A stretch of DNA of 23,772 bases from a virus (IMGVR_UViG_3300016484_000447:1-23772); one strand, 5' to 3'; positions 2,408 to 15,060 are shown, counted from the stretch's first letter. Numbers and translations are program-made. Notes: generated by a model from the sequence alone, not told the origin.

Positions 2408-2854
2408 TTACGGCATCACCCACAGGTTGAGTTCGGCGTTCGGGTGCTGGGTCTTGAGGATGATGTCCTCGACAACATTCCACTTACCACCGCCGAGGCC
2501 ACAGCCGATGAGAGGAAAGTTGACTGCTGACCCGGTGAGGTGTTCGATGCCCGCCACGAACTCGAAGACCTCGCGCACAGCGTCGTAGTCCACGTACTTC
2601 TTGCCATCGCGCCCGTAGAACTCCTGCGTCACACCGTTGATGACCGTTGTAGTTCCGTCCGTCCAGAACGTGCAAGTCCCGAGTCGCAGCTTGCCAGCTT
2701 GGAAGGCTTTCATGTACTCGACGTAGGCGTCAGGGAACTTCCGCTTGATCGCCAGCGCAACGCCAGACCCCATCACACCCTGCGCATTGCAGCCGTGGAC
2801 GATGATGCCCTTTGCCGAGGTGATGTCACCTCGAACTTCGTTGATCCTGCTCAT
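2408..2854 (-). CDS. Macro-domain protein (ADP-ribose processing; TARG1/DarG-like subgroup)
   Basis: Motifs VRGDIT, IVHGCNAQGVMGSGVA, FPLIGCGLGGGKW; ATGA overlap start at 2854. Confidence 0.85.
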   Translation of the reverse strand: MSRINEVRGDITSAKGIIVHGCNAQGVMGSGVALAIKRKFPDAYVEYMKAFQAGKLRLGTCTFWTDGTTTVINGVTQEFYGRDGKKYVDYDAVREVFEFVAGIEHLTGSAVNFPLIGCGLGGGKWNVVEDIILKTQHPNAELNLWVMP

Positions 2855-3057
2855 TGGCCCTTCCTCTTCAAGTGGATGTCGAACCCAGCCAGGGAATGCC
2901 CACACACGTCGCCACGGAAGTCGAACTGTACTGTCACGGTCGGGACTACTTGTGAGACGACGTACCCTGGGTTCGCTTTTTCAAGCTCTTCCTTCAGGAA
3001 CGCTTCCACTTGAGCCTTGGTCAGCTTGACCATCAGGTTGTTGAACACCAGACTCAT
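2851..3057 (-). CDS. Hypothetical protein (68 aa)
   Basis: Coupled ORF in operon. Confidence 0.65.
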   Translation of the reverse strand: MSLVFNNLMVKLTKAQVEAFLKEELEKANPGYVVSQVVPTVTVQFDFRGDVCGHSLAGFDIHLKRKGQ

Positions 3058-3239
3058 AGCCCGAACCCCTCATTGTCCCCGTCGTCGTGGTTGGAGATGT
3101 ACCGCTTGCAGCTTCCGTCTGCCTCGACAGGCGGAGTCATGAAGAAGCTCTGCCGCCACGGATTCTGCGGCGCAGTGTGGCGATAGCACGCCCGCTTCTT
3201 CAAGCAACCCTCCCCGCCGCACATGGTAATGTCGGCCAT
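3054..3239 (-). CDS. Small Cys-rich phage protein (MADITMC...CYR...C, 61 aa)
   Basis: TGATG overlap with upstream gene; four spaced Cys suggest metal binding. Confidence 0.7.
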   Translation of the reverse strand: MADITMCGGEGCLKKRACYRHTAPQNPWRQSFFMTPPVEADGSCKRYISNHDDGDNEGFGL

Positions 3240-3601
3240 CAGTCGCTGCTCCAGCTTGAAGAGCCGGAGTCCGACGAACACGACGAGTAGGAGTCGCCCG
3301 TGGACGTGGACTCGTAGCACGGTGTTGGTGCCGGGCTCGGCGCAGGCTCGTAGTACACAGGCGCGGGCGCAACGCACACGCCGTCCGTGTTCGACAGCAT
3401 GACCCCGACAGCCACCACCGAGGAAAAGTCGGCGCAACCGGCGTCTTGGACGACAGTCACAGTGCTGGTGTCGCTGCTGACAGCCCTGAGAGGGCTGACG
3501 TAGGCGGGTTGATTGGCACCGCTCTGGAAGCGAGCCTTCCCGGTGCATCCGGGTCGCTTGTTGCAGCGGTTGTACCACTTGCAGTCACACGGTTTGTTCA
3601 T
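3239..3601 (-). CDS. Hypothetical protein with N-terminal Cys cluster and Ser-rich low-complexity C-terminus (120 aa)
   Basis: AAGGAG SD before ATG 3601. Confidence 0.7.
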   Translation of the reverse strand: MNKPCDCKWYNRCNKRPGCTGKARFQSGANQPAYVSPLRAVSSDTSTVTVVQDAGCADFSSVVAVGVMLSNTDGVCVAPAPVYYEPAPSPAPTPCYESTSTGDSYSSCSSDSGSSSWSSD

Positions 3602-3893
3602 GGTTCTCCTTCTCAGGGTTGAGACGTGCAGCCCAGCGTGCTTTCGCAAGGGCTACAGTCTGCTTCATCGTGATTTCGACGGCGCCAAGGGCAACGGCTT
3701 TGGCACGCTTTCCCGTAGCCACGTCGAAGTGTTCTTTCCACGTCCCCTCTTCCTGAAGCCAGTCTCGGGACATGCCCAGATTGTAAGCCATTTTCAGCAA
3801 CTCTTCGGTGCTGTCAGCCGTCATGTGGCACATTTTCATGCGCCCCAGCCTGCCCATGTTGGTCAGGTGCATGTCATCGACGTAGACTGTCAT
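3585..3893 (-). CDS. DUF4031-family protein
   Basis: MTVYVDD...CHMTAD..EEL...A..LG..R.W.Q....EHFD pattern recognised from memory of the family. Confidence 0.75.
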   Translation of the reverse strand: MTVYVDDMHLTNMGRLGRMKMCHMTADSTEELLKMAYNLGMSRDWLQEEGTWKEHFDVATGKRAKAVALGAVEITMKQTVALAKARWAARLNPEKENHEQTV

Positions 3894-4099
3894 CCTCCAC
3901 GGACTCCCATGATCTTCAGAACCATGTCCTCGGCATCTCCGAGGGCAACACGGGCTCTGAAAACGTCTGATGCAGCCTTCATTGCCCTGTTCCCGTTGAC
4001 AGTCTCCTGCGTGAGACGCCTTCCGTCCTCTTCGAGTTCCTGTTGCAACGCGAACAGGGCGCCATTCAGCAACTGAATGCCGTTCAGCCGCTCCTTCAT
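3890..4099 (-). CDS. Hypothetical helical protein (69 aa)
   Basis: Coupled to rtcB stop and to the DUF4031 start. Confidence 0.65.
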   Translation of the reverse strand: MKERLNGIQLLNGALFALQQELEEDGRRLTQETVNGNRAMKAASDVFRARVALGDAEDMVLKIMGVRGG

Positions 4100-5373
4100 C
4101 AGTTTCCCTTCACGCAGAGGACAGCCTTCAGGACGTGAACGACTTCCACCAAGTCCTTCTGAAGCTCCATGACGACATCCAGACGCTTGTAGGCGCCGGG
4201 GATTTCATCCAGCACTGCGGAGTCCTTCCGGCACTCCACGCCATCCGTCTGCTCGATCAGGTCTTGCAGGGAGAACCGGCGCTTCGCTTCAGCCCGGGAC
4301 ATCGCCCGCCCCGCACCGTGCGAACACGAACAGTAGCTGTCGGCGTTGCCCTTGCCACGGACGATGTAGGACTGCTGACCCATCGAGCCAGGGATGATGC
4401 CCATGTCGCCCTCGCGTGCGCGGATTGCGCCCTTGCGCGTCACCCACAGGTTCTGCCCGAAGTGGTTCTCACGGGAGATGTAGTTGTGGTGGCAGTTGAT
4501 GGCTTCACTGGTCACGGTGAACTCCACCGGGACGTGCCGACGCAGAGCCGCCAGGACGACAGTCATCATCTCCTTGCGGTTCTCCAGGGCGTAGTCCTGC
4601 GCCCACTGCACCGCGTCCGTGTACGCCTTGAAGTCGTCGTCGGCTTCCGGGATGAAGGCGAGGTCGCCATCGGGCAGGGTGATGTAGAACATCTCCATCT
4701 TGCGCTTGGCCTTCTCGATGTAGTAGCTGCCGATCATGTTGCCGACGCCACGGGAGCCCGAGTGCAGCATGACCCACACGTCGTCGTTCTCGTCGGTGCA
4801 GAGTTCGATGAAGTGGTTGCCGCTGCCCAGCGTGCCAACTTGGCTGACGCTCTTCTTCAGGAAGGCTTCCTCGTCCTTGAACGGCACCTTGGCGGATTCC
4901 GGGGCGCTCTTGAACAGGTCGCTCCGCGCCGCGATCCAGATGCTTCGCTCCAGGCCATCGACGTTGTGGCTTCCACCAGTGCCCATCGGGATGTCACGCT
5001 CGATTTGCGAGCGGATGGCCTTCAGGTTGTCGGGCAGTTGGTGCGCCTTCAGCGACAGGCGGACGGCGTTCATGCCGCAGCCCAGGTCAACGCCAACGGC
5101 AGAGGGGATGATCGCGTTCGTGGTCGGAACCACGGAACCCACGGTCGCACCCTTGCCCAGATGGGCGTCGGGCATCAGGGCCACGCCCTGCGGAGCGATG
5201 AACGGCAGACGTGCGATGTTCTTGGTCTGTTGCAGCGCCGCGTCTTCCACGTCGATGACCGTCACCTTGTCGTAGTGGTTGACCCCGAACTCGTCTTCGC
5301 GTCGAACTTTGGACTCCTTCGTGCCCAGCCATGCCTTGATGGGCTTTGCGCCCTCTTCGCGGGTGACGATCAT
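4099..5373 (-). CDS. rtcB: RtcB RNA ligase (3'-phosphate/2',3'-cyclic phosphate to 5'-OH, GTP/Mn dependent)
   Basis: MPDAHLGKG, VGVDLGCG, GTLGSGNHF, LHSGSRG, HHNY, IPGSMG, SHGAGR motifs; AAGGAG SD before ATG 5373. Confidence 0.95.
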   Translation of the reverse strand: MIVTREEGAKPIKAWLGTKESKVRREDEFGVNHYDKVTVIDVEDAALQQTKNIARLPFIAPQGVALMPDAHLGKGATVGSVVPTTNAIIPSAVGVDLGCGMNAVRLSLKAHQLPDNLKAIRSQIERDIPMGTGGSHNVDGLERSIWIAARSDLFKSAPESAKVPFKDEEAFLKKSVSQVGTLGSGNHFIELCTDENDDVWVMLHSGSRGVGNMIGSYYIEKAKRKMEMFYITLPDGDLAFIPEADDDFKAYTDAVQWAQDYALENRKEMMTVVLAALRRHVPVEFTVTSEAINCHHNYISRENHFGQNLWVTRKGAIRAREGDMGIIPGSMGQQSYIVRGKGNADSYCSCSHGAGRAMSRAEAKRRFSLQDLIEQTDGVECRKDSAVLDEIPGAYKRLDVVMELQKDLVEVVHVLKAVLCVKGN

Positions 5374-5386
5374 CTTTCTCTCCTTC

Positions 5387-5527
5387 TCAGCGTCTTGAAA
5401 ATCGAACAGCCCACAGTATACCGTAGGCGAGAGCCACGTACATCGCAAGTGGCGCCAAAGCCACACACAGGATGATGACGGCTGGGGCGGGAAGAGCCCG
5501 CCCGCTTCGGCTGAATCTACGGCTCAT
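5387..5527 (-). CDS. Small single-pass membrane protein (46 aa)
   Basis: Hydrophobic core VIILCVALAPLAMYVALAYGILWAV flanked by Arg-rich ends; fills the gap between genes. Confidence 0.5.
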   Translation of the reverse strand: MSRRFSRSGRALPAPAVIILCVALAPLAMYVALAYGILWAVRFSRR

Positions 5528-5792
5528 TGGAGCCCGCCCCCGGAGCGAGCTTCGCCCACTCTCCACGCTCAAGGAACCCGACGCACTTCCACTTTGCACA
5601 TTCGCAGCAGCAGTCGTGCATCTCCTTGCCGTGAAAGCCGAGGTACTCGTCATGCACGGAGTACATGAACTCTTCGGTCTTCCCCTGGACAGGTGCCACG
5701 ATGAACGAGTAGGCGTCGTTGATCCTCAACAGCCAGTGCCCGTTCACCTCGTCTTGTCGCCAATGGTAGTCAGAGAGCCTTTTGCGAGCCAT
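5517..5792 (-). CDS. Hypothetical protein with CCCEC motif (91 aa)
   Basis: AAAGG SD, tight packing. Confidence 0.65.
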   Translation of the reverse strand: MARKRLSDYHWRQDEVNGHWLLRINDAYSFIVAPVQGKTEEFMYSVHDEYLGFHGKEMHDCCCECAKWKCVGFLERGEWAKLAPGAGSNEP

Positions 5793-5802
5793 GTCGAACC
5801 TT

Positions 5803-5958
5803 TCAGTAGCGTCTGGTGGCCTTGAACTCCGTGTTCCAGCCGTCGATCCACCTCTGGGCGGACACCGTGCCCGCCTTGTGGGGACATTGTGCCACAGACT
5901 TTCCTTCGGTGAAAGCCTTTCTTCCAGCCTCGTATGGAAAGTACCAGTGCGCCGCCAT
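5803..5958 (-). CDS. Rmf-like small protein (51 aa), below ORF-track cutoff
   Basis: Hand translation MAAHWYFPYEAGRKAFTEGKSVAQCPHKAGTVSAQRWIDGWNTEFKATRRY; Y..G..A...G....CP.......W..GW pattern. Confidence 0.65.
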   Translation of the reverse strand: MAAHWYFPYEAGRKAFTEGKSVAQCPHKAGTVSAQRWIDGWNTEFKATRRY

Positions 5959-5959
5959 G

Positions 5960-7219
5960 TCAGCCCTTCTTCAGCAGGTAGCTGTTCGAGATGGCCTTGA
6001 AGCTGAAGTCCCGCTTGTTCGACTTGAACACCACACCCTCGCGCTTCACGCCCTTGTTCATGCCAGGGCCTTCGGCGTAGGCCAGGATGCTCTCGACCAT
6101 CGCACGGGCTGACTCTTGCGGAGTCAGGCTGGCATCAGCCTCGTGCCGGAACTCCTTCAGCGACATGCGACGTTCCAGAACTGGCACGTAACTCAGGCAG
6201 GCGAACTCAGTCGCAAGACGTGCAGCAACCGGGCGCAGGTAGGTGCCCTCGGTGATGTTGAACACGTCGAAGACGTGCCACCCGTAGCCGCTGACTTGCT
6301 CGTGGTTCTGCTGGATCGACGGCGCGATCAGTTCCCCTTGGAAGGCGACCGCTTCATCCGGTTGCGCACCCAGGGCGATCTTCTCGATGATGCGGTGTTC
6401 GCGCACGAACTGGCTGAAGTGGTTGTCACCGTCGATGTCCAGTTCGATGTTGCGACTGCACACGCCCGACAGGTACTCAGGCTTCGGTGCAGGCCAGAAC
6501 CGCGACTTGATGGAGTCGATCACCCGACCGAACAGGCCCATCTTCGCACGACGCTTCTCGTCACGCTCCTTCAGGATTTCGGCGTACAGCGGGTTCTCCT
6601 TGCCGATCACGTAGACCGTCATGGAAGAGCCGTCCAGCTTGATCGTGGCCTCGAAGGTTTCTTCGTCATCGACTGTCGGGATCAGGTGGATGTAGTTCTG
6701 CACCCGCTCTTGGTCGGTCTTGCGCAGGAACCACGGGAAGGCACGAGTCTTGCTTGCCTGCGACGGCCCGCCCTTCTCGGACTGTTGCACCTCCAAGGGC
6801 TCCCACTTCTCGACCTTGAGAATGTCGGTCACGTCGTCGCCCTCGTTGTAGAACAGGCCGGGGCCGACAGACGCCTTGAACGGGCTCGTGCTGACTTCCA
6901 CAGTCGTCCCCATCAGTTCGGGGAACTGGCTCGTGGACAGTATCAGGCCCTGCGACAGTTGCTTGCGCAGCTTGATCGTCTTCAGGCGCATCCCGCGCTT
7001 CGTGCCCCAGTTGGTGAAGCGTTCCTCGAAGGAAGCGTACACCGGGTTGCTGGCGTCCAGCCACGAGTCCACCTCGAAGTAGACCACGAGGTCGCCCACG
7101 GCGAATTCGCCCTTCTTGACGACGACAGACCAGCCCAGGACATCGGCGACTTCGATCAGGTCGGCGCCGGGGATCGGGCGCAGGCCCGTGACTCGTTGAA
7201 TGCTTGCGAGTTTACGCAT
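5960..7219 (-). CDS. ATP-dependent RNA ligase, DRB0094/Rnl2-like family with N-terminal OB-type domain
   Basis: MRKLASIQ N-terminus, motif I KLDGSS, FQGEL, FDV, REGVVFK, FKAISNSYLLK. Confidence 0.9.
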   Translation of the reverse strand: MRKLASIQRVTGLRPIPGADLIEVADVLGWSVVVKKGEFAVGDLVVYFEVDSWLDASNPVYASFEERFTNWGTKRGMRLKTIKLRKQLSQGLILSTSQFPELMGTTVEVSTSPFKASVGPGLFYNEGDDVTDILKVEKWEPLEVQQSEKGGPSQASKTRAFPWFLRKTDQERVQNYIHLIPTVDDEETFEATIKLDGSSMTVYVIGKENPLYAEILKERDEKRRAKMGLFGRVIDSIKSRFWPAPKPEYLSGVCSRNIELDIDGDNHFSQFVREHRIIEKIALGAQPDEAVAFQGELIAPSIQQNHEQVSGYGWHVFDVFNITEGTYLRPVAARLATEFACLSYVPVLERRMSLKEFRHEADASLTPQESARAMVESILAYAEGPGMNKGVKREGVVFKSNKRDFSFKAISNSYLLKKG

Positions 7220-7554: not shown

Positions 7555-7902
7555 TCAGACCGGGCTGCGCCCGGCTCGTTCATTTCTTGTGTTACGTGAC
7601 CCTATCCAGCGTCTGTACGCCTCCATTTCCCATGTGTTCCCAGACTCATCCACGACTTGAAACACAGGGGACACGAACACGTACTCTCTTCCGTACAGGT
7701 TTCCATCTAGCAGGCTTACGGGGCTAGTGCTTGAAACCAACCCTTCCGGGAATCCGTCTTCACCCTCTTCCCAAGACTCTGACACATGCCAAGCTATGAT
7801 TGGGTTGTCAGTGTCTATGTAGACTTTCCCATCACAATCTGAAACCATGAAGTACCCCGGCACTGCCGTGATCATGTTTCGTGCGTGCCGCCTCGTCTTC
7901 AC
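7555..7902 (-). CDS. Hypothetical protein with lower GC and atypical codon usage (start may be 7875, MITAVPG)
   Basis: ORF overlaps vWA stop; A/T-ending codons frequent. Confidence 0.55.
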   Translation of the reverse strand: MKTRRHARNMITAVPGYFMVSDCDGKVYIDTDNPIIAWHVSESWEEGEDGFPEGLVSSTSPVSLLDGNLYGREYVFVSPVFQVVDESGNTWEMEAYRRWIGSRNTRNERAGRSPV

Positions 7903-9194
7903 TTGTAGGTGTACCAGCCGAAGATGGTGTTGCCGACGACGACGCTGCCGCGCTGCGGAGTGCCGGTCTTGCTGTCGCGGGCCTCTTGGCGCGTGCTGAA
8001 CACGTTCACAGGGCGACCGTTGACGGTCGGGAAGAGGCTCTTGGGCGCCTGGGCCTTCGGAATCGGGCTTGCAGTCGGACGGGTGTTGCCGACGACGGCT
8101 GGCAGAACCGGGACTGCGGGTGCCGCAGGGGCCTTCGGCGCGAACTTGTCGATGTCCTCCTGGGTGAACGGCACACCTTGCTTCTCCCAGTAGATCACGC
8201 CCACGTTGTCGGGCAGCAGCCTGTTCAGCGACTCGCTCTGGATGAAGATGTCGTAGTTGCCGTGGTCGCCAGGGTGGACGCGAGCGTTGCTCGTCGGGTC
8301 GGTCGGCATCCCGATCATCTGGCGGGCTTCCTTGCCAGCGAAGATGCGGTGCGGTGCCTGACGCTCACGAATCAGCACGATCTTCTTCGGGCCGATCTTG
8401 GGCTCGGTCTTCACCAGTTGCACGAACGCGGCGCCCTTGAGGAACTTGCTGCGCTTGCTCAGGATGAAGTCGTCGATGCGCAGGCGTGCGGTGCCGTTCG
8501 AGTTGGGCACTTGGTACAGGCTCACTTCCGAGGTGATGTCGGTCAGCTTCGACACGTCCACCGCTGCGGCGTTGGTGTAGAACGACGACGAAGACCGGGC
8601 ACCAGCCGAACGGGCGGCGTAGTACGCAGTGGTCGCGGCCTGGGTCGCCACGGTGGCCTTTGCCATGCCTTCGCGGGTCGTCTCCCACTCCAGCACGTTG
8701 CCATCGGGGATGCCGATGGCCGTCGCGTGATGTGCTGCACCGCGAGGCATACGGGCGACGAAAGTCCAGCGACCAGTGGCCTGAAGCTCTTCGATCTTTC
8801 GGCAGAGGTTGGTGGCGCTTCTGCGCTTCGAGTGGCTCTCGCGCCCGTCTGTCGTGATGAAGATCAGGAACGACACGTCCGGGTTGGAGTAGTCGGGGAG
8901 CTTCTCGTGCAGTTCGATGGCATCCCAGATGCCGTCGTACAGCGGGGTGCCGCCCGGCGTCGGCCAGGAAGTCTCTTCGCGCATGACGTTCGGGTTCGAG
9001 ATGACGTACTTCCGCACGACGCCCGAGTCTCCGTCGAGGCCGACACCGAAGGCCGAGACGATGGTGTCCAGACGCTCCTTGGTAGCGGCATTGGCGATGG
9101 ACATGCGGTTGGCGTTCGAGTCGGCCAGGGCCATCTTTGCGATGCCGTGCATCGAGCCGCTGTGGTCGTCCACGAATGCGATGTAGTTCTTCAC
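7899..9194 (-). CDS. von Willebrand factor A (vWA) domain protein with uncharacterised C-terminal half (431 aa, GTG start)
   Basis: MIDAS elements DHSGS, GGTPLYD, ITTDG; AAGGAG SD. Confidence 0.85.
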   Translation of the reverse strand: MKNYIAFVDDHSGSMHGIAKMALADSNANRMSIANAATKERLDTIVSAFGVGLDGDSGVVRKYVISNPNVMREETSWPTPGGTPLYDGIWDAIELHEKLPDYSNPDVSFLIFITTDGRESHSKRRSATNLCRKIEELQATGRWTFVARMPRGAAHHATAIGIPDGNVLEWETTREGMAKATVATQAATTAYYAARSAGARSSSSFYTNAAAVDVSKLTDITSEVSLYQVPNSNGTARLRIDDFILSKRSKFLKGAAFVQLVKTEPKIGPKKIVLIRERQAPHRIFAGKEARQMIGMPTDPTSNARVHPGDHGNYDIFIQSESLNRLLPDNVGVIYWEKQGVPFTQEDIDKFAPKAPAAPAVPVLPAVVGNTRPTASPIPKAQAPKSLFPTVNGRPVNVFSTRQEARDSKTGTPQRGSVVVGNTIFGWYTYK

Positions 9195-13721: not shown

Positions 13722-13810
13722 GGGTGTTTTCCTGCTGCCGGGCTGTAACCCCGGCGTCGTAAAACAGGTAGGCTGGTAGACGAGAGGTTCGAGTCCTTGA
13801 ACACCCACCA
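13722..13810 (+). ncRNA. Non-canonical tRNA(Tyr)-like RNA lacking a D-arm at the normal position (89 nt)
   Basis: Acceptor GGGTGTT/AACACCC + A-CCA; anticodon arm GCCGGG-CTGTAAC-CCCGGC; TTCGAGT T-loop; only 8-9 nt between acceptor and anticodon stems. Confidence 0.75.
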
Positions 13811-13828: not shown

Positions 13829-14017
13829 ATGTTCGGTCTTCTCGAAGACATCGCAAAGGCGGCTGTGGCAGTCGTGACCACGCCGGTTGCAGTGGTGGTC
13901 GATACCGCAGAACTGGTCGGCATCAAGCAAGACAGTGGTCGCTGCCACACAGCCGACACCCTCGGTGCGGTGGTCAAGAACCTCGAAAACGCTGCGAACC
14001 CCACGTCCAGGGGTTGA
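13829..14017 (+). CDS. Small Val/Ala-rich protein (62 aa)
   Basis: AAGGAG SD; stop overlaps next -35. Confidence 0.7.
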   Translation: MFGLLEDIAKAAVAVVTTPVAVVVDTAELVGIKQDSGRCHTADTLGAVVKNLENAANPTSRG

Positions 14018-14043
14018 CAGGACAAGGAAGTGTGTGATACACT
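14014..14043 (+). promoter_or_regulatory. Promoter of the tRNA/ncRNA operon
   Basis: TTGACA-N18-TACACT with TGTGA; first tRNA starts 11 nt downstream. Confidence 0.8.
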
Positions 14044-14133: not shown

Positions 14134-14325
14134 TCATTCGCGTGGGCTTGTAGGTGATAGTGACGAAAGGTGCTTGACTGGTACATCTTGCACTGAGCCA
14201 CCCGTTCGAGTCGGGGAAGAGGCCACTGGCAAGTAGTCACAACGTTCACCGTGACGCACTCAGACGTATTCTGAGCAACGGTAGGTCGTATGTAAGCGTA
14301 GCCTACTACGAGCCCACACGAATGA
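14134..14325 (+). ncRNA. Candidate structured RNA A (192 nt)
   Basis: ~20-bp closing stem 14134-14153/14306-14325; internal T-loop-like hairpin and three further hairpins. Confidence 0.7.
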
Positions 14326-14330
14326 AGATT

Positions 14331-14407
14331 GCCCGGGTGGCGAAATTGGCAGACGCGGACGGTTGAGGGCCGTCTTCTTGCAGGTTCGAGTCCTGCCCTG
14401 GGCACCA
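14331..14407 (+). tRNA. tRNA-Leu(GAG) with short variable loop
   Basis: Cloverleaf, anticodon GAG, 5-nt variable region, CCA. Confidence 0.9.
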
Positions 14408-14652
14408 TGTTCTTTGATAGTCGCTTCGGAATACCGAAAGAGAAACACCGCGAGAGGGGCAGGGGCTAGCACACCTCCCCGAAAGGTGAAAAGTCGGAAT
14501 TCAAAGCAACGGGGACGTTGCTGGCGAAACAGGATCGGAGTTGGCGGAAGGCACCGGGCTGAGTAACCCGGAGAAGCCACCCTTGAACTCTACGACTGAC
14601 GCATTCGCCCGAAGGCAAACGGTAATCCGACCGGAGCGACTTTCAAAGAGCA
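14408..14652 (+). ncRNA. Candidate structured RNA B (245 nt)
   Basis: ~21-bp closing stem 14408-14429/14631-14652; nested helices, GNRA-type loops. Confidence 0.7.
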
Positions 14653-14655
14653 TTT

Positions 14656-14727
14656 GCGGGTTGTCAATGGAGTACGTTTGGCCTTCCAAGCCGAAAGAGG
14701 CAGGTTCGACCCCTGTAGCCCGCTCCA
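14656..14727 (+). tRNA. tRNA-Gly(TCC) with degenerate D-arm
   Basis: GCGGGTT/AGCCCGC acceptor, U73-CCA, TCC anticodon; 72 nt, D-stem barely pairs. Confidence 0.8.
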
Positions 14728-14734
14728 AAGAATT

Positions 14735-15060
14735 TTCGATGTAGCACGGAAGACGCCTGCTAAGGTTGCGGGTAGTCACGGAAGATGCGAAGCACTGCTA
14801 CGGTGCTAGCCCGAAACTACTGAGGATTTGCGGCCCTACTGCACACAGGCCATAAGGTAGAAAAACGAAGTGCCCGCAACGTTATCGAAGGAATACGGAC
14901 GAAAGTGGCCTGAAAAGAACACTAGACGGACTAGCTTCGACATAAAGCGGTAGAGATGCCCGAGCGGTGACAGCGTAAGCTGATAGCGTCGGATCGACAG
15001 GGACAATAACCCGGCAAATCCTGTTCATCTCAGCCAATGACTGTAGGCTATAAAACAGTC
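14735..15060 (+). ncRNA. Candidate structured RNA C (~330 nt) with kissing loop, pseudoknot and repeated ANGGA motifs
   Basis: Helices 14735-40/14884-89, 14765-72/14873-80, 14953-58/15026-31; loop-loop CAGGCCA/TGGCCTG; 3' H-type pseudoknot. Confidence 0.6.

Follow-up and report, generated by a model that had tools for sequence, protein, structure and literature searches.

RNA B, a 245-nt element at positions 14408-14652 (+) of the 23,772-nt stretch of viral DNA that we analysed (IMGVR_UViG_3300016484_000447, hereafter the window), belongs, as an enlarged form, to a conserved RNA family that is uncatalogued and located between phage tRNA genes. Members of this family, mostly 105-150 nt long, were found in 40 or more contigs from phages or metagenomes, as well as in Synechococcus phage S-CBWM1; they come mostly from a few related freshwater phage groups, so that the independent lineages are fewer than the contig count. 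Their alignment and genomic positions show a conserved fold, predicted to be a pseudoknotted three-way junction, and residence in tRNA operons. The anticodon-like hairpin that the initial annotation had singled out in RNA B is at most a lineage-specific add-on to it.

RNA B and its relatives

RNA B begins directly after the CCA of a tRNA-Leu(GAG) gene (14331-14407, +; encoded CCA, called by ARAGORN, Rfam tRNA score of 50.5 bits), as the initial annotation had placed it, and both its coordinates and its sequence were confirmed. Its 3' end lies 3 nt (UUU) before a tRNA-Gly(UCC)-like gene (14656-14727, +). The minimum free energy of the 245-mer was -102 kcal/mol, compared with -74.2 ± 4.7 kcal/mol for its dinucleotide shuffles (z -5.9), and none of the 200 shuffles was as good. 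The original observation is real, and we read the locus as the gene for a compactly folded non-coding RNA. Two minus-strand ORFs over RNA B (14260-14580 and 14501-14779) were dismissed because they run across tRNA genes.

The first homolog came from a search around terminase homologs: contig L003, whose terminase is 88% identical, carries it at 86-311, after the same tRNA-Leu(GAG). A shared 14-mer then led to further copies in L006/L007 and L032, and a two-block pattern to compact forms (~129-142 nt with the terminal stem P1 included) in low-GC phage contigs that are unrelated and reach 192 kb in length. Later scans contributed 14 metagenome contigs more, and the junction strand occurs in naturally varying form in 21 additional viral contigs. 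Natural variants of J3/4 in the family are AAAACUCGGAA, AAAAAUCGGAA and AAACACCGGAA. Chance pattern matches were removed with the family model; the rejected ones (L083, L085-L087, L091, L093, L095, L098-L100, most of L102-L135 and of L144-L157) lay in coding or AT-rich DNA.

When RNA B and the compact members were compared by BLAST with 50,697 cultured phage genomes, S-CBWM1 was the sole cultured phage matched. Its member (L101 1453-1582, equal to NC_048106.1 19704-19833) occupies an unannotated gap with tRNA-Gly on one side and tRNA-Asn on the other and has the junction strand variants GGGAAG and AAACACCGGAAUU. Contig L151 holds two diverged paralogs (2618-2748 and 2838-2978) in the same tRNA array, each between two tRNAs. 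This 4.3-kb contig was binned to a Chitinophagaceae MAG; as it carries 10 tRNAs within 4.3 kb, it is probably phage DNA.

Model R1 scored the compact members at 73-115 bits and L007 at 36 bits, and the lower scores of RNA B (24 bits) and L003 (17.9 bits) reflect their large insertions, so that membership leans partly on manual mapping for these two. The match to RNA B was the single one in its 87.8-kb genome (E 8.3e-4; E 0.0089 among 948 kb), with an alignment that is partial because of the insertion. Rfam 15 gave only tRNA matches at gathering thresholds and, at E up to 10, none on 14408-14652. The compact members were likewise without an Rfam match, and L089 and L090 had no non-tRNA match at E up to 10. 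A literature search found no paper describing this fold or family. Extra stable RNAs in phage tRNA clusters are of a known kind, but this fold and this family are absent from Rfam.

The conserved junction and its form in RNA B

The family core runs in the order P1, P2, J2/3, P3, J3/4, P4, J4/2, the 3' strand of P2, J3' and the 3' strand of P1. P1 is 6-21 bp long and free in sequence, P2 is 3-5 bp, the J3' strand has 6-9 nt and P3 is closed by CAC/GUG. The strands that form the three-way junction, GAGAAA (J2/3), AAAAGUCGGAA(UU) (J3/4) and GGYAAA (J4/2), are near-invariant and amount to about 30 nt in all. Across 18 distinct sequences aligned to R1, 91.7% of the helix cells were paired, compared with 73.9 ± 1.3% in shuffled alignments. 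Double changes were seen in 15 of the 19 pairs, a result that none of 500 shuffles matched, and slid registers paired at 33-52%.

The first hairpin in the P4 domain has a loop whose sequence complements the J3' strand. This complementarity was seen in six covarying classes (AAGAGA/UCUCUU, UUGAA/UUCAA, GCUC/GAGC, CGAGA/UCUCG, CUUUCU/GGAAAG and AUCCA/UGGAU), on which the statistics rest, with Watson-Crick runs of 4-6 nt between cognate J3' strands and loops versus mostly 0-3 nt between non-cognate ones. We read it as a pseudoknot, through which the P4 arm would be bent back against the internal loop that separates P1 from P2. The initial annotation had named a homolog alignment as one way of checking RNA B for conserved structure in relatives, and such an alignment yielded both covariation and the putative pseudoknot. 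Its suggestion of a large RNA of unknown class stands, in the form of a pseudoknotted three-way-junction family that Rfam does not hold; the GNRA docking that it mentioned is plausible, and a ribozyme is unlikely.

RNA B holds J2/3, the P3 closure, J3/4, J4/2, P2 and P1 in the family order. P1 pairs 14408-14429 with 14631-14652, contains one U-U mismatch and covaries across the family; it corresponds to the terminal stem of about 21 bp in the initial annotation, whose extension by GGAAUACCG/CGGUAAUCC proved to be an alternative register. P2 is formed by UACCG (14432-14436) and CGGUA (14620-14624), and its columns are 100% paired, with double changes in alignment A6. J2/3 (AAAGAGAAA, 14437-14445) is a near-invariant block with the family consensus NNN-GAGAAA; in RNA B it ends in GAGAAA, with the CAC...GUG closure of P3 directly after it (14437-14448, 3' side at 14486-14488). 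The P3 hairpin domain as a whole spans 14446-14488 and is closed by CACC/GGUG (CAC/GUG in the family, CAU/AUG in L003). J3/4 (AAAAGUCGGAA, 14489-14499) is identical to the family consensus at 11 of 11 positions, and the identity includes the UU that follows (14489-14501). After the expanded P4 domain (14500-14613), J4/2 reads GGCAAA (14614-14619; GGYAAA in the family) directly before the 3' strand of P2, and the internal-loop strand J3' reads AUCCGA (14625-14630; AUCCAA in L003), the counterpart of which is the putative pseudoknot strand in relatives.

Two inner closures proposed earlier, AGTCG/CGACT (14492-96 / 14593-97) and GAATTCAA/TTGAACTC (14497-504 / 14583-90), were not upheld. The complementarity is present, but the nucleotides involved are conserved junction strands that have no such partner in any relative. 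Similarly, some of what had been listed as several GAAA loops are junction strands rather than loops, and the only true GNRA loop is the GGGA at 14512-14515. When the three junction strands were forced to be unpaired, RNA B folded at -97.5 kcal/mol versus -102 kcal/mol, a cost of 4.5 kcal/mol.

Between J3/4 and J4/2 the family has a P4 helix of 7 bp (6 bp in L003; UUG/CAA in L007). In the constrained fold of RNA B, compared with L003 and L007, P4 consists of UUC/GAA only (3 bp; 14500-14502 / 14611-14613) and opens into two arms, P4a and P4b. The P4 domain is larger than that of compact members by about 75 nt, and the insertion inside P4 comes to about 110 nt. L003 and L007 carry analogous P4 expansions that are built differently from that of RNA B. 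The P4a hairpin GCAACG-GGGA-CGUUGC, found at 14506-14521 as described earlier, is GNRA-capped and is the positional equivalent of the hairpin that would form the pseudoknot in relatives. In L003, J3' (AUCCAA) has the P4a loop GUGGAU as its partner. The candidates for pairing with J3' AUCCGA in RNA B are the GGA of the GGGA loop (GGA/UCC only) and UCGGA at 14535-14539. Since a GGGA tetraloop sits in the relatives' pseudoknot-loop position, the pseudoknot of RNA B may be reduced to GGA/UCC or swapped for tetraloop docking, which is plausible for this loop; these details of P4 and of the pseudoknot in RNA B are model-based.

P4b (14523-14609), closed by GGCGAA/UUCGCC in the constrained fold, is a lineage-specific expansion. 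At its tip is the hairpin CCGGG-CUGAGUAA-CCCGG, found at 14554-14571 as first reported, with a loop of 8 nt; this hairpin is not conserved. The tip reads GGC-A-CCGGG-CUGAGUAA-CCCGG-AGAA-GCC in RNA B versus GUA-CCC-GAAA-GGG-AGAAAC-UAC in L003. The two share the AGAA bulge and covary in the flanking helix, but in L003 the stem has 3 bp and the loop is GAAA, and CCGGG...CCCGG occurs there only in tRNA-Met and tRNA-Pro. The anticodon-like hairpin was absent from L003, L007, L032 and all compact members, and L007, L032 and the compact members lack the whole arm. A search of IMG/VR viral contigs for the exact 18-mer of the hairpin returned one match (L002), which lies in coding sequence with no nearby tRNAs and was put down to chance.

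Genomic setting and possible functions

In 28 of 33 members, a same-strand tRNA ends no more than 31 nt upstream of P2 and thus abuts P1; a same-strand tRNA starts no more than 35 nt downstream in 22 of the 33. All tRNAs at the 33 member loci are on the strand of the RNA, and the identity of the flanking tRNA differs by lineage (Leu, Gly, Phe, Ile, Lys, Asp, Glu and Asn). The members in L185, L135 and L088 have no adjacent called tRNA, so release by tRNA processing would not be the sole maturation route; P1 is longer in the L185 member.

The large terminase, portal and major capsid genes of the window follow shortly after its tRNA array. The first tRNA of this array is preceded by a sigma-70-like promoter match, TTGACA-18-TACACT (14014-14043, +), which is a match to the consensus only. 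The tRNA-Gly(UCC)-like gene downstream of RNA B has an odd D-arm region and no ARAGORN call, and its Rfam tRNA score of 26.6 bits (at 14656-14724) is below the gathering score of 29; ARAGORN calls its near-identical homolog in L003 (387-460) as tRNA-Gly(UCC). The spacer that follows, RNA C (14735-15060, ~330 nt), is clearly conserved in L003 (552-900), and its 3' part (GCCCGAGCGGUGA...GGAUCGACAGGGACAAUAACCCGGCAAA) directly follows the RNA B homolog in L032 (1130-1215). With its D-arm-like string, RNA C is apparently a further conserved RNA of this lineage that is not a tRNA. In L005, whose terminase is 75% identical, the slot between Leu(GAG) and Gly(UCC) holds a different insert of 170 nt (4907-5076), with the paired ends GCUCCAGC/GCUGGAGG and without any of the family junction motifs; the slot seems to exchange its contents.

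A leftward cluster in the window (2408-7219, -) encodes a macro-domain protein (2408-2905), RtcB (4099-5466) and an Rnl-type RNA ligase (5960-7219, -) that includes a PHA02142 OB domain, and looks like an RNA-repair kit. The gene at 7899-9194 (-), previously labelled 'vWA', had no Pfam hit, and the label does not hold. RtcB was found in one of the ten other records holding the RNA, the L007 genome among the genomes with RtcB, and was absent both from a complete 192-kb genome with the RNA and from S-CBWM1. We rejected a general link of the family to RtcB or RNA repair, as RtcB accompanied the RNA in these records only within the lineage of RNA B itself.

Taking these comparisons of sequence and gene order together, we lean somewhat towards reading the family as a stable RNA that is released by tRNA processing and whose invariant junction is the functional site. 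The RNA would be transcribed within the tRNA precursor; 3' processing of the upstream tRNA would set its 5' end, RNase P acting at the 5' end of the downstream tRNA would set its 3' end, and the paired ends would make the released product stable. The invariant junction, shaped by the pseudoknot (or in RNA B perhaps by docking of the GNRA tetraloop), would then be the working part. It might bind a partner that very different hosts share, whether a protein or RNA of the tRNA and translation machinery or a small ligand, or it might instead have an intrinsic activity. What extends P3 and P4, the anticodon-like hairpin among it, would be lineage-specific decoration.

Retention of the same core at widely differing GC content and in phages of different hosts suggests either a self-contained activity or a target that many bacteria share. 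Each option would be new phage RNA biology and might provide structural studies with a new RNA fold, and S-CBWM1 on Synechococcus CBW1002 offers a cultured host-phage pair for such work. For annotation, the gaps in tRNA arrays would have to be treated as gene space, not as spacers. A bolder and rather doubtful version of this reading is that the junction and pseudoknot form the core of a new class of ribozyme or high-affinity aptamer acting on or sensing tRNA or the translation machinery, to which RNA B would add a copy of an anticodon arm as a second function confined to its lineage. If so, phages would deploy such an RNA from their tRNA operons, and the machinery concerned would be common to very different bacteria.

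The initial annotation had offered a different function for RNA B, namely a scaffold that presents an anticodon-loop decoy: the hairpin would mimic the anticodon arms of the phage and soak up host anticodon nucleases or other anticodon-loop enzymes. The stem shared by these arms is real, since CCGGG-N7/8-CCCGG occurs four times in the window against an expected 0.08, in a tRNA-Tyr-like element, RNA B, tRNA-Met and tRNA-Pro. (The tRNA-Tyr-like element, CCGGG-CUGUAAC-CCCGG at 13738-13754, lies upstream of the array and has no ARAGORN tRNA call.) The loop of the RNA B hairpin also retains the CU...AA flanks of tRNA-Met, and the RtcB and Rnl-type ligase of this phage suggest pressure from tRNA-cutting defences. 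However, CUGAGUAA has 8 nt and does not match the anticodon-arm pattern of a 7-nt loop with U33 and a purine at 37, conservation is found in the junction rather than at the tip, and RtcB is scarce among the genomes with the RNA. The annotation had also tied this proposal to a loop that would not vary freely among relatives. The loop varies in both length and sequence, and, with the hairpin in a lineage-specific expansion and present in no relative, the decoy proposal fails on its own terms; we consider it very improbable. The identity of the hairpin with the tRNA-Met arm may be a product of recombination, and a role limited to this lineage is conceivable.

Other functions would place the activity in, or deny it to, the junction itself. 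A new self-cleaving or otherwise catalytic RNA, with the junction as a putative active site that cuts the tRNA precursor or acts on tRNAs, would be in keeping with the ~30 near-invariant junction nucleotides and the compacting pseudoknot, which are typical of small ribozymes. A-GUC occurs within J3/4, and the block GAGAAACAC...GUG may be similar to the hairpin ribozyme in its loop B and helix 4. Precedent exists in the HDV-like theta ribozymes, which occur beside phage tRNA genes (PMC10879173). Nevertheless, no Rfam ribozyme family matched at E up to 10, no conserved cleavage-site geometry was identified, and cleavage is not needed where the neighbouring tRNAs would already set both ends of the RNA, so we regard a ribozyme as unlikely. 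Improbable as well is a riboswitch-like aptamer, in which a ligand bound in the junction would stabilise P1 and alter the processing of the adjacent tRNA. Many riboswitch aptamers share this architecture, in which P1 closes a conserved junction of several strands and a pseudoknot makes a long-range contact, but the family has neither an expression platform nor a downstream ORF, matches nothing of this kind in Rfam, has flanking tRNAs that vary by lineage and includes members away from tRNAs. There is a slim chance that the RNA is a passive structured spacer, a stable hairpin-like insulator without a function of its own that lets the neighbouring tRNAs fold independently. It does fill gaps from tRNA to tRNA, and the different 170-nt structured insert of L005 indicates that the slot tolerates varied contents; yet a spacer would not preserve ~30 junction nucleotides and a covarying pseudoknot across 36% to 57% GC and different hosts, and members outside arrays exist.

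Comparison with known RNAs

Several likenesses to known RNAs did not hold. A resemblance to RNase P RNA (GUGAAAAGUCGGAA versus GAGGAAAGUCCGG, and the order P2-P3-P4) was rejected because the compact members offer a P4-type long-range helix no 3' partner that is conserved and because there was no Rfam hit. The string AGUCGGAA was unconvincing as a D-loop mimic given the variants AAACACCGGAA and ACUCGGAA, and UGCGA was unconvincing as a T-loop motif, being missing from the L088, L090 and L032 forms. On the RNA B region, L089 and L090, Rfam 15 gave no match to GOLLD, ROOL, group I introns or known small ribozymes.

Riboswitch aptamers that combine a three-way junction with a loop-to-internal-loop pseudoknot, such as those of the THF-I class, follow the same general plan as the family: a helix closes a conserved junction, and a long-range pseudoknot reaches an internal loop. 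The family, however, has no sequence or Rfam similarity to them, lacks an expression platform and is not found in 5' UTRs. Bacterial Y RNAs (YrlA, RF02553; associated with Ro/Rsr and RtcB) resemble RNA B in the paired ends that close a modular RNA and in the RtcB gene nearby. P1 of the family, however, has no conserved Ro-binding sequence, and RtcB is missing from most genomes that hold the RNA. In the window, YrlA matched nothing but true tRNAs (E no better than 0.5), with no match on 14408-14652, and no TROVE/Ro domain was present among the 20 window ORFs scanned.

The HDV-like theta ribozymes are, like this family, small structured RNAs directly beside phage tRNA genes. They are built on a nested double pseudoknot, whereas the family appears to have a three-way junction with one loop-to-internal-loop pseudoknot, and no HDV family of Rfam matched. 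GOLLD (RF01998) and ROOL (RF03087) are large ornate RNAs of phages and prophages that often lie beside tRNA genes (PMC12286853). The family shares with them that it is phage-borne, intricately folded and frequently beside tRNA genes. They are 4-6 times larger, with an unrelated consensus core, and the family gives no sign of their oligomeric cages.

There is a parallel in genomic niche with the T4 tRNA cluster, whose species 1 and species 2 RNAs (rnaC and rnaD) are non-tRNA RNAs of ~120-140 nt on the same strand as the tRNA genes, between or after them, and would likewise be released by tRNA-processing enzymes. We asked how far the likeness to rnaD goes. T4 rnaD begins with GAGAAAC-hairpin-UAAGUCGUCGGA, a short local likeness to the family in the arrangement GAGAAAC-hairpin-AAGUCG..GGA, and T4 itself also has a UUCC-CUGAGUAA-GGAA hairpin. 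This CUGAGUAA loop is not conserved among T4-like phages, though, and R1 gave T4 rnaD 5.3 bits (E 3.8). Conversely, the rnaD model R2, built on 8 T4-like phages, matched no member of the family, its best match being to the anticodon and T arms of tRNA-Met. The topology of rnaD also differs: it has no P1/P2 closure, three-way junction or pseudoknot and looks tRNA-derived, whereas the family has no tRNA-like 3' end. Distant homology to rnaD is, from these comparisons, largely refuted, and we give it very little weight. As for rnaD itself (L136 3054-3172, - strand, in T4), the best foreign matches of its model were the anticodon arm, variable loop and T stem of tRNA-Met, which suggests a degenerate tRNA derivative. 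The extra stable RNAs of phage tRNA clusters, known since T4, have stood unexplained for fifty years; the family described here brings to this kind of RNA an architecture supported by covariation and ~30 near-invariant nucleotides.
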